Of a stretch of 64,000 bases of DNA, positions 32,826 through 34,858 are shown piece after piece. Within the stretch, counting starts at the first letter, position 1, and each line of letters starts with the position of its first letter. This DNA is from Alphaproteobacteria bacterium (lineage in GTDB: Bacteria; Pseudomonadota; Alphaproteobacteria; CALKHQ01), in the NCBI GenBank assembly GCA_965227515.1, contig CBDDFZ010000001.1:1920001-1984000 (forward strand). The letters run 5' to 3'. A program made the position numbers and the translations under genes. A model generated the notes under the pieces. It searched no databases. It was not told the DNA's origin and saw only the letters and a program-made list of their open reading frames with translations.

Positions 32826-32916
32826 ATGCCCGTAGCCTGGGTGGAGCGCAGCGGAACCCGGGTTCGTCGCCACCTGCATTGTCAGTCCCCGGGTTTCACT
32901 TCGTTTCACCCGGGCT
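32826..32916. repeat. GTAG-type REP doublet (family D) interrupted by the IS110 element
   Basis: Left arm ATGCCCGTAGCCTGGGTGG; right arm CACCCGGG-CT is completed by ACGGGCAT at 34337-34344; intact relative at 59276-59359. Confidence 0.88.
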
Positions 32917-32949
32917 TCTGTAACGGGCCATTGTTGGTCAATCCCTTTT

Positions 32950-33115
32950 TCGTCGTCCCGGCGCCTGGGTCATGCTTCTGTACGGGGTCGGCGCAGGGCC
33001 GCCGCCAAGATGGATATGCGAGGATCGGTCGGTCCAATCTACGGAAGCGTGCTCTCATGCGAGGCGACATCCCGGATGGCGGCCTGACCTGATCCATCGT
33101 CCCGGCGCGGGACGG
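32950..33115 (-). ncRNA. predicted bridge/seekRNA of the IS110 element
   Basis: Two internal loops with segments matching target (33069-33075, 33039-33044) and donor junction (33007-33013, 32975-32982); ends approximate. Confidence 0.78.
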
Positions 33116-33180
33116 CGCTCGACGGGCCGGTGTCGGTGCCCGTCGAAGCTCGTGTGTCGGTTCTCCTTATGCCGCGGCCA

Positions 33181-34224
33181 TCATGCTGTCGCCATCGCCG
33201 GGCGCACCGGTCCGGCATGGTTGAACGGTGTGCCGTCAACCCACATCCGGTGCATGATCACGGCGAGCCGGCGCGCCAGCGCGACCTTCGCCTTCCTCAT
33301 GCCCGCACGCCTGGCCAGCTTCATCGCCCAGCTCTTCAGCCAGCCGCCCTCGATCGGCCGGGTCAGAACCACGTGTGCCGCCTCATAGAGGGCCGAGCGC
33401 ACATCGGCGTCCCCTACCTTCGATATCCGCCCCATCACCTCGCTCTCGCCCGACTGGCGCTTGGTCGGCGTCAGGCCGAAGTGCGCACCCACCAGGCGCG
33501 ACGAGGCAAACCGCCCGGGGTCGTCCACTCCCGACAAGTAGGTCAGTCCGACAATGCTCCCCACGCCCGGCACCGTCATCAGCAGGCGAGCGCGATCGTC
33601 GGCCTGCGCCGCCGCCCGGACCTGCCGGTCCAGCGCCGTGAACGATAGCAACAGGCCATCGCGTGCCGACAGCAGCGCCCCCGCCACCGCCTCCAGTACC
33701 GGATGCCCCGCCACAAGCTCCGAAATACGTGTCGAAAAGCTGCGCCTGGTGGTGTGCCCTACCTTCAGCCCGAAGTTCCGCAGCTGACCACGAAGGTGCA
33801 TCTCAAGATCGTGCAGCTTCGCGCGGAGCTGGTCGCGACCCTTCAAAAGGGCCCGCATCTCCTGGGCCGCCAAAGACTTGCAGTGAACCGGACGAAACCA
33901 GCCCACACGCATCAGCTGAGCAATCCCGCGTGCGTCCGAGCGGTCCGACTTCACCGGCATCGTCGAAAGCGCTCGCGCAACATGACGCGTCTCCAGCAAC
34001 TCAACCGAAAGACCGCCCTCGCTACATCCCCGCACAAGCCATTGCGACAACGGCCCCGCCTCAAGACCAATCCGCTCAACCGAAATCCCCAAAGACCCAA
34101 ACCACAACAACAAACCCGCCGGCGTGCTCGCAATACGAGCCTCGCAGACAATCCCGCCCGCGCCGTCAACAACGCACACCGATGACCATTCCAAAGAAAC
34201 GTCAATCCCGGCATAGTAGTTCAT
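33181..34224 (-). CDS. IS110 family recombinase/transposase
   Basis: DEDD RuvC-like residues (GIDVS, LEAG, KSDRSDA), TVPGVG, GLTP...QSG catalytic Ser, GRISK.GD, VALARRLA; GAGGAG RBS. Confidence 0.96.
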   Translation of the reverse strand: MNYYAGIDVSLEWSSVCVVDGAGGIVCEARIASTPAGLLLWFGSLGISVERIGLEAGPLSQWLVRGCSEGGLSVELLETRHVARALSTMPVKSDRSDARGIAQLMRVGWFRPVHCKSLAAQEMRALLKGRDQLRAKLHDLEMHLRGQLRNFGLKVGHTTRRSFSTRISELVAGHPVLEAVAGALLSARDGLLLSFTALDRQVRAAAQADDRARLLMTVPGVGSIVGLTYLSGVDDPGRFASSRLVGAHFGLTPTKRQSGESEVMGRISKVGDADVRSALYEAAHVVLTRPIEGGWLKSWAMKLARRAGMRKAKVALARRLAVIMHRMWVDGTPFNHAGPVRPAMATA

Positions 34225-34858
34225 GGTCGTCTCTCCTCGATGTCTTGGAGCGGCAAACCCGACTCCGTGTATGACACCGACATCTTGAGGGACGACCACT
34301 CATGCACGCCACCAAACAAGGGCCGTTAGCCCATCTACGGGCATGAAGGTCCGCCATCTCGGCCAACTTGGCGACAGTGTTGAGGTTGCGGCCGGTGCCC
34401 GTGGCGGCGGCGGGAATGACGAGTTTCGATGGGCCCTGGCCGTCCGGGTAATGGACGTAGATTTCGCGTTCCCCAAGCGCGATCTCCTCGTTCTTGAAGC
34501 CCCTGGCGGTTTCCGCGGCGTCGTCGGGCGGCGGTTGGTCAAGAAACAGCACGATGACCCGGTTCGGCGCGGCGTCCCGGAACGGGTTGCCGGCGAGCAC
34601 CCGCGCCATTTCGGCGGACGTGCGCAGCACCACGCCCACCGGCTTGCCTGTGTGGGCTTCCAGCCGCGATTCCAGCGCTACTTTCACTTGGGCACGCGAC
34701 ACGTCGGCCGTGAACACGACGTTGCCGATGGCGATGTAGGTGCGGGCGCCGGTGAAGCCCGCATCCGCGCATATCTGGCGCAGGTCGACCATCGCGAGCT
34801 TGCCGGTGCCGCCGACGTTCACCGCGCGGAGGAGGGCGATGTAGGTTTGGGCGGTCAT
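34202..34858 (-). CDS. DUF1697 domain protein with IS-derived C-terminal extension
   Basis: YIALLRAVNVGG, TYIA.GNVVF, GT.RN.NT..KL; codons after 174 lie inside the IS. Confidence 0.85.
   Translation of the reverse strand: MTAQTYIALLRAVNVGGTGKLAMVDLRQICADAGFTGARTYIAIGNVVFTADVSRAQVKVALESRLEAHTGKPVGVVLRTSAEMARVLAGNPFRDAAPNRVIVLFLDQPPPDDAAETARGFKNEEIALGEREIYVHYPDGQGPSKLVIPAAATGTGRNLNTVAKLAEMADLHARRWANGPCLVACMSGRPSRCRCHTRSRVCRSKTSRRDDHELLCRD

Follow-up and report, generated by a model that had tools for sequence, protein, structure and literature searches.

An Alphaproteobacteria bacterium (GCA_965227515.1) very probably carries, in the long non-coding end of an insertion sequence, a functional gene for a bispecific bridge RNA, or seekRNA, that belongs to an element of the IS1111 group. 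We analyzed positions 1,920,001 to 1,984,000 of contig CBDDFZ010000001.1, and all of the coordinates below refer to this 64,000-nt window. Judged from the DNA, the element is real, present in multiple copies, and probably active. We observed the sequence matches of the guides, their covariation with the targets and with the element termini, the covariation within the RNA stems, 20 site-specific insertions, and intact genes. The mechanism class is already known, and the element is a further member of the family, in which the guide changes with the target.

The RNA-guided IS110/IS1111 recombinases are under development as programmable genome-rearrangement tools, and most of the mechanistic work concerns two members of the IS110 branch, IS621 and ISCro4. 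The IS1111 branch gains an ortholog in which the REP target is defined, all four guides and the handshake positions are annotated, and covariation supports the secondary structure. Moreover, a single genome provides a natural experiment of 20 independent insertions by two subfamilies with guides one base apart, and these insertions show position-specific matching, wobble tolerance, and a preference for the perfect 9-nt match. For genome annotation, a 20-copy repeat is explained and tied to a REP family. The known mechanism itself is left unchanged by the element.

The element and its insertion sites

The element is an intact insertion sequence of the IS1111 group in the IS110 family, an assignment that we made because it combines the Pfam domains of its recombinase with subterminal inverted repeats and a long non-coding end downstream of the gene. 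The recombinase matches PF01548 (DEDD_Tnp_IS110, 9.5e-13) and PF02371 (Transposase_20, 2.3e-20), both above the cut-offs. The motifs GIDVS, GLEAG, and KSDRSDA lie at residues 6, 53, and 92, and the serine motif GL-P----SG, as defined in Siddiquee 2024 (PMC11187229), occupies residues 250-259 (GLTPTKRQSG at 250). The IS1111-group criteria are those of Siddiquee 2024 and Durrant 2024 (PMC11208160). The C-terminal domain resembles those of ISCro4 (9t56, 1e-11) and IS621 (8wt6, 7e-11) only distantly. The nearest protein outside the genome is 72% identical in a search of 5.8 billion proteins, and the nearest plasmid DNA is ~68% identical in a plasmid collection; the matches in both searches bear generic names only (“IS110 family transposase”, “transposase”).

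The non-coding end downstream of the gene measures 264 nt (33180-32917), as compared to 110 nt upstream (34334-34225). The 2-nt core reads CT on the plus strand and AG in the transposase direction, with copies at 32915-32916 and 34335-34336, and the inverted repeat arms sit 4 and 6 nt inside the core copies. The boundaries of the 1,420-bp element are common to the 20 genome copies, which have unrelated outer flanks. On the plus strand, the junctions read CCGGG-CT/TCTGTA (32910-32922) and CCAT-CT/ACGG (34331-34340). Therefore, the empty target CCGGG-CT-ACGG and the circle junction CCAT-CT-TCTGTA, which the preliminary description had derived, are correct.

The genome (5.5 Mb, 2 contigs) contains 20 full copies of the element and one internally deleted copy. 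All 20 recombinase genes are intact, 18 of them encoding 347 aa and 2 encoding 345 aa; the latter belong to copies L007 and L018, whose elements are 6 bp shorter, which fits in-frame deletions. The dead copy (G000:C1:998352-999196; L021, L022, L072) lacks query positions 138-718, so that its RNA has lost the target half and its gene the C-terminal part; the remaining RNA scores 56.4 bits. We distinguish subfamily A, whose 13 copies share at least 99% identity with the window copy, from subfamily B, whose 7 copies are 89.6-97.4% identical to it.

In the transposase direction, all 20 copies share the context flank-GT-AG/element/AG-CCYGGRTG, in one orientation, and every copy (20/20) occupies the same position of a REP that starts with GTAG. 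The right flank is always the REP hairpin, while the outer left flanks are unrelated. The AG dinucleotide alone is common to both junctions, and the 20 copies have no target duplication beyond this core. A REP census found 114 unoccupied GTAGCCYGGRTG sites in the genome. The claim of an intact RNA-guided recombinase aimed at a GTAG REP is thus supported by the domains, by the 20 REP sites, and by the guide covariation described below.

The REP that holds the element forms the right arm of a pair of inverted REPs (32826-32916 and 34337-34346). Its left arm, consisting of GTAG (32832-32835) and CCTGGGTG (32836-32843), is unoccupied, and is of the site type used by subfamily B. Rfam assigned only weak miRNA-like matches (E 0.13 and 4.6) to the REP hairpin (32832-32918), and these were rejected as chance.

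Table 1. Features of the element and of its predicted RNA, in window coordinates.
Feature	Positions	Strand	Details and basis
Whole insertion sequence	32917..34336	-	1,420 bp including one 2-nt core copy; junctions read directly
Transposase/recombinase gene	33181..34224	-	347 aa; DEDD RuvC-like N-terminal domain and C-terminal Tnp domain
Left subterminal inverted repeat arm (left in transposase direction)	34311..34328	.	18 nt, 78% complementary pair
Right subterminal inverted repeat arm	32921..32938	.	partner of 34311..34328 in repeat search
REP repeat split by the insertion, left part (plus strand)	32888..32916	+	rest at 34337-34344; hairpin 32832-32918; REP census
Bridge/seekRNA body, long form (predicted)	32943..33116	-	covariance model R1, 121.7 bits, E 4.5e-30
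5′ stem-loop, just upstream of the RNA body	33118..33148	-	-20.6 kcal/mol, z -2.4
P0 long-range closing helix (probable), 5′ strand	33101..33114	-	constrained folds, compensatory changes, duplex energies
P0 long-range closing helix (probable), 3′ strand	32955..32969	-	constrained folds, compensatory changes, duplex energies
Target-loop base stem, 5′ strand	33086..33095	-	GGAUC-A-GGUC; RNAalifold
Target-loop base stem, 3′ strand	33022..33030	-	GACCGAUCC; RNAalifold
Long target guide (LTG; “T” match of the seekRNA papers)	33069..33079	-	CCAUCCGGG and two core positions AU
Distal hairpin of target-binding loop	33047..33068	-	constrained fold; compensatory changes at 3/5 and 6/6 pairs of helices 4 and 5
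Short target guide (RTG; “B” match)	33039..33044	-	CCGUAG; 6/6 match in window copy
Handshake dinucleotide, target-binding loop	33037..33038	-	AU; same as first two bases of the element's left end
Left donor guide	33007..33013	-	CCAUCUU; same as plus-strand circle junction CCAT-CT-T
Distal hairpin of donor-binding loop	32986..33006	-	RNAalifold; compensatory changes at 6/8 pairs; 92.5% of cells paired
Right donor guide	32975..32982	-	UACAGAAG; terminal 7-mer repeated at the element's right tip
Candidate handshake dinucleotide, donor-binding loop	32973..32974	-	CA; 1/2 flank bases match; analogy with IS621
Conserved -35-like hexamer	32936..32941	-	TTGACC; after circularisation 17 nt from -10-like GAAGAT

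Four guide segments in the non-coding end

Read on the minus strand, the non-coding end contains CCGGGAU (33075-33069), CCGUAG (33044-33039), CCAUCUU (33013-33007), and UACAGAAG (32982-32975). These are the four segments of the preliminary description, and a search derived from the coordinates returned exactly their four start positions. For a chance test, the non-coding end was simulated 40,000 times with a first-order Markov chain. Taken one at a time, the probes turned up in 18104, 1337, 275, and 35 of the simulated ends, the most frequent being the first match, a 7-mer with one mismatch allowed. Three or more probes coincided once, and the full set of four never did. The segments start (33075, 33044, 33013, and 32982) exactly 31 nt apart, which may be a coincidence or reflect the same internal geometry in both modules.

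For the comparison with relatives, a scan of genome contigs yielded 29 homologous loci with 43-69% amino-acid identity, and their element ends were located by motif-anchored end finding. Downstream of the gene, most of the homologs share a conserved scaffold that is interrupted by variable segments where the guides lie.

Target guides and REP sites

The position and the guide role of CCGGGAU stood up to this analysis, but its target-pairing part is 9 nt long (CCAUCCGGG, 33079-33071) rather than 5. These 9 nt are the exact complement of the REP variant CCCGGATGG. One core base of the long guide forms an A.G mismatch in every copy, while the core bases of IS621 are described as always paired (Hiraizumi 2026, PMC13626964, Discussion). 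The core-pairing positions (33070-33069) are AU here, and CA, CA, CC, and AA in the nearest clade, L023-L026. In the L028-L048 clade, they are CU, and the guide is one nucleotide closer to the distal hairpin.

The two subfamilies differ in guide and target alike. The subfamily A guide ends in CCGGG, and 11 of its 13 copies have AGCCCGG targets. The subfamily B guide carries a single G-to-A change (CCAUCCAGG) and ends in CCAGG, with AGCCTGG targets in 7/7 copies; the probability of this partition is 4.6e-4 by Fisher's test. The subfamily A copies occupy CCCGGATG nine times, CCCGGGTG twice (the window copy among them), and CCTGGGTG twice. The perfect variant CCCGGATG thereby accounts for 9/13 subfamily A copies vs 27/134 of the sites (binomial p = 1.8e-4), and CCTGG sites account for 7/7 subfamily B copies vs 45/134 of the sites (p = 4.8e-4). 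Subfamily A occupies a third of the perfect 9-nt sites, as compared to 3-5% of the sites with one or two wobbles. In the two A copies at CCTGGGTG, every deviation from the guide is a G.T or a U.G wobble. Since the imperfect sites differ by such wobbles, the pattern fits RNA-DNA pairing, and is not the prediction of a protein reader.

The same relation extends to the homologs. The long guide matches its own right flank at 8.95 of 11 positions, as compared to 5.16 (sd 0.99) for the non-cognate flanks, and none of 100,000 permutations (12 representatives) reached the observed sum. The fit is poor in L025 (5/11), L032 (6/11), and L048 (7/11). At the loci added by the RNA model, the flank fit by eye is 8/9 in L074, 9/10 in L079, and 7/9 in both L080 and L083. 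The short guide covaries more weakly with the left flank, with 5.5 cognate vs 4.44 non-cognate matches of 8, and 176 of 100,000 permutations (9 representatives) reached the observed sum. The homologs include kin that are not independent, and therefore the permutation figures given here and below overstate the significance. The covariation of guides and targets across homologs, which had been named beforehand as a check, is thus present, and it includes the two subfamilies within one genome.

The short guide CCGUAG matches the window copy at 6/6 positions, as described earlier, but GUAG alone is constant over the 20 copies, and therefore the effective short guide in general is (C)GUAG. The C is inseparable from the REP's own consensus: flank position -1 is C in 15/20 occupied vs 81/114 empty sites, and position -2 is C in 4/20 vs 42/114.

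Donor guides and handshake dinucleotides

Both donor guides match the circle junction, as originally proposed, and the right one tracks the element tip, but the left one covaries weakly. The right donor 7-mer recurs at the right tip in 27 of the 33 homolog rows, with five covarying types (ACAGAAG, AGAGAAG, AGCGAAG, ACGGAAG, and ACCGAAG). Among the six misses, L023 is without a tip, the tip of L039 is farther away, that of L046 was not located, and L075, L076, and L077 showed none. As seen by eye, L039 and L046 keep CCCCAU at the left donor guide, although their left ends start with CT.

In IS621, each right-hand guide is followed by two bases that, once exchange has taken place, pair with the incoming strand (Hiraizumi 2026, PMC13626964). 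By analogy, handshake dinucleotides follow both of the right-hand guides here as well, the donor-loop one as a candidate, which extends the earlier description. The target-loop handshake agrees with the element's own left end in 16/17 rows (by eye; two types only, among kin that are not independent), and in L039 and L046 it is CU (AG-CU), with left ends that start with CT. In the window copy, the Watson-Crick pairs at the handshake positions would increase from 0 before the exchange to 3 after it, while the corresponding numbers for IS621 are 1 and 3 (Hiraizumi 2026, PMC13626964).

The region of the left donor guide (33000-33015) is also complementary, over 16 nt and at 81%, to the nearly invariant GACGAUGGAU (33092-33107) toward the 5′ end of the RNA. 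This complementarity could serve guide masking or represent donor-end mimicry.

Secondary structure of the RNA

The unconstrained fold of the whole non-coding end (262 nt) is not unusually stable (z = -1.4; 19/200 shuffles fold as well), and its minimum free energy structure was discarded as uninformative, with the guides paired with each other. No family in Rfam 15 matches the non-coding end at E up to 10, and an IS1111-type bridge RNA model may be absent there. The folding suggested in the preliminary description succeeded with constrained folds and covariation, which give the stems listed in Table 1.

RNAalifold, applied to a MAFFT alignment of 22 RNAs, returned the target-loop base stem and the donor hairpin, both with compensatory changes. 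We counted pairs and built the model on the reference structure of one member, L030. In the MAFFT alignment, 78.8% of the cells are paired, as compared to 39-48% when slid, and 27/47 pairs show compensatory changes. In the model-fitted alignment of 34 distinct RNAs, which leans towards the model, the corresponding values are 83.3%, 38-46%, and 38/47. In this latter alignment, the base stem has compensatory changes at 11/12 pairs, with 89.6% of its cells paired. The stems keep their pairing through G-U intermediates on the transposase strand only; one pair, for example, is UG in 19 RNAs, CG in 6, and UA in 5. The base stem and the donor hairpin are well supported.

A long-range helix, P0, which had escaped the preliminary description, probably closes the whole RNA. 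When the guide segments are held unpaired, P0 forms around both modules in 21/22 RNAs, and it has compensatory changes at 12/14 pairs in the model-fitted alignment. The cognate P0 strands form duplexes of -21.4 kcal/mol, as compared to -14.2 (sd 5.3) kcal/mol for the non-cognate strands, and 0 of 20,000 permutations reached the observed value. On the model-fitted alignment, RNAalifold returned the base stem and the donor hairpin only, and neither P0 nor the distal target hairpin; therefore, P0 rests on the constrained folds, the compensatory changes, and the duplex energies. We also looked by eye for a base stem belonging to the donor loop alone; a short one is predicted in a few homologs only (L028, L044, and L048), and we left it out of the structure for this reason. 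At the position of the 5′ stem-loop, many homologs have a hairpin of differing sequence (by eye).

Among the helices initially drawn, covariation supports two, the GGUC/GACC closing stem and the CGGCG/CGCCG hairpin, and the CUC/GAG hairpin fits the constrained fold. The CCA/UGG closure is absent from the supported structure, and we dropped it because CCA belongs to the longer target guide.

Covariance model R1 found 21 matches in the genome, corresponding to the 20 full copies and the deleted one, and no solo RNA modules there. Elsewhere in the class, the model detected the RNA in 5 of 150 genomes, and the 3 genomes searched from the same family gave no match. Two unusual arrangements were seen among the homologs. 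The 1,657-bp element L039 has two target-loop modules in tandem (L039:2266-2539); the second (L039:2467-2539, 25.9 bits) fits its own right flank at 10/11 positions by eye, and the first has a guide similar to the one in L046. L084 (G059:C2:469136-469255) is a 120-nt partial match to the RNA model, with a donor half and no target loop.

Transcription

A promoter search of the linear element gave no sigma-70-like match. The -10-like GAAGAT exists only across the computed circle junction, and TTGAC[N]-17 nt-GAAGAT is the best sigma-70-like match in 12 of the 15 distinct junctions. This geometry appears to agree with the literature, in which a junction promoter is taken to drive co-transcription of the recombinase mRNA with the long RNA (Siddiquee 2024, PMC11187229, Discussion).

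The upstream neighbor gene (34202-34858, minus strand) reads toward the element, with a frame that enters the REP and the element's left end, and read-through from this gene could transcribe the window copy. A Shine-Dalgarno-like AGGAG (33163-33167) lies just past the transposase stop and ahead of the 5′ hairpin. It occupies the same place in many homologs, and no start codon follows it in the window copy.

Alternative explanations

Does the RNA guide both recombination partners, or only the target? The first module (roughly 33095-33022) might guide alone, with the ends read via the subterminal inverted repeats, and with the donor-like matches representing scaffold or by-products. A precedent exists in ISEc11, where an 82-nt short seekRNA with target matches only sufficed for movement and the role of the long form is left unsettled (Siddiquee 2024, PMC11187229). 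The clear subterminal repeats of the element point in the same direction, as does the weak covariation of the left donor guide, with CCCCAU kept in L039 and L046 despite their CT left ends. However, the right donor 7-mer changes with the right tip (five types, 27/33 rows), the target-loop handshake follows the left end in 16/17 rows, and the donor hairpin and P0 are kept by compensatory changes. This combination implies selection on the whole long RNA, and we regard guidance by the target module alone as improbable.

It is very unlikely that the matches act in the DNA, as internal pseudo-ends or double-stranded recombinase sites such as those of ISPpu9-like modular circles, rather than as RNA guides. 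Stem pairing that survives through G-U intermediates on the transposase strand only, the wobble-tolerant targets of L002 and L004, and the lack of solo modules among the 21 matches of model R1 in the genome (20 full and 1 deleted) all argue against such sites, even though, by eye, ~12 nt of the right donor guide region look like the true right tip once a one-base gap is allowed. The partial L084 copy, with its donor half only, and the duplicated target module of L039 would suit modular DNA signals, as would the several circle types of ISPpu9 and its RNA module, which is reported as dispensable for transposition (PMC12288879). A chance resemblance, or a decayed relic without function, is scarcely credible. 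The matches are indeed only 6-8 nt each, and the first one arose in 18104/40,000 simulations, but the four together arose in 0/40,000. The covariation of guides, stems, and tips already refutes chance as far as the sequence evidence goes, and the 13 near-identical copies and 20/20 intact genes speak against a relic. A bispecific RNA that guides both partners is the reading that we prefer.

Proposed mechanism of the bispecific RNA

The following steps are proposed; what they say about promoter activity, transcription, protein binding, and the order in which strands are exchanged draws on IS621, ISEc11, and related work.

RNA formation: An RNA of ~160-175 nt would be transcribed in the transposase direction, probably together with the transposase, from the promoter rebuilt at the circle junction. 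A long-range helix of 12-16 bp would then close the RNA.

DNA pairing: The 9-nt guide CCAUCCGGG would pair with one REP strand on one side of the 2-nt core, and the short guide (C)GUAG with the other REP strand on the other side of the core. In the second module, CCAUCUU and UACAGAAG, which flank the hairpin, would pair with the two element ends that abut in the excised circle.

Strand exchange: The DEDD/serine recombinase, together with the RNA, would recombine the circle and the REP at the core. The dinucleotides AU and CA are predicted to pair better after the top-strand exchange than before it, and insertion would thereby be favored.

It is conceivable, although we consider it rather doubtful, that this clade represents an architectural variant of the IS1111-type bridge RNA, with a closing helix, a register-shifted long guide, and single-base reprogramming within one genome. 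In such a variant, both modules would be enclosed by one long-range helix, so that the donor guides would lie in a three-way junction and not on a stem of their own. The long target guide may be one nucleotide out of register relative to the sister clades, with the core no longer fully paired, and the two co-resident subfamilies may partition two REP alleles while tolerating G.T and U.G wobbles. Should imperfect core pairing and the closing helix tune insertion versus excision, the IS1111 branch, which is less studied, would gain design rules from them. Three points appear to go beyond the textbook case: the helix that closes the RNA, the long guide of this clade, which is shifted in register by one base and pairs imperfectly with the core, and the partition of guides and REP alleles within the genome. 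The closing helix or the donor guides may already stand in published IS1111 figures or supplements.

Comparison with known systems

Bridge RNAs have been predicted in the right end of 93.0% of the IS1111 elements, three of which were inspected (Durrant 2024, PMC11208160), and seekRNAs have been shown for four IS1111 members, ISEc11, ISPa11, ISKpn4, and ISPst6 (Siddiquee 2024, PMC11187229). The layout and the guide order found here agree with both descriptions. The shared features are a transposase of 330-350 aa with GL-P----SG, subterminal inverted repeats, a long non-coding end downstream of the gene, a long RNA of about 145-172 nt, and a target that is not duplicated outside the shared core; ISPa11, too, is directed at REPs. 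In contrast, the target here is GT-AG/CCYGGRTG, and no outside protein in the search exceeds 72% identity to the transposase. Furthermore, the donor guides are not assigned in the accessible text of Siddiquee 2024 (PMC11187229), whereas the donor half here covaries with the element tips.

ISPpu9 of Pseudomonas putida is likewise an IS110-family element that inserts into REPs, with a small-RNA gene, Ssr9, downstream of the transposase (Pares-Guillen 2025, PMC12288879). Ssr9 is reported there as not required and as moving as a separate module, with solo copies, and ISPpu9 forms several circle types. In contrast, model R1 found no solo RNA copies in the present genome, and the guides here covary with the target and the ends.

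The bridge RNA of IS621 and ISCro4 (Durrant 2024, PMC11208160; Hiraizumi 2024, PMC11208158; Hiraizumi 2026, PMC13626964) represents the IS110 group. Unlike these elements, the RNA gene here lies downstream of the recombinase gene and is oriented toward the element tip, so the guides and the coding content are inverted relative to the ends. The subterminal repeats are long, the protein resembles theirs in the C-terminal domain alone (E about 1e-11), a junction probably closed by the long-range helix, rather than a stem of their own, holds the donor guides, and the long guide mismatches one core base, unlike that of IS621. Nevertheless, the RNA is bispecific in both groups, with the target loop first and the donor loop second, preceded by a 5′ stem-loop and directed at a REP target. 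In both, a long left guide (7+2) and a short right guide (4+2) overlap at the CT core, and handshake dinucleotides follow the right-hand guides; the one in the target loop, AU against AT in the donor, corresponds to that of wild-type IS621.
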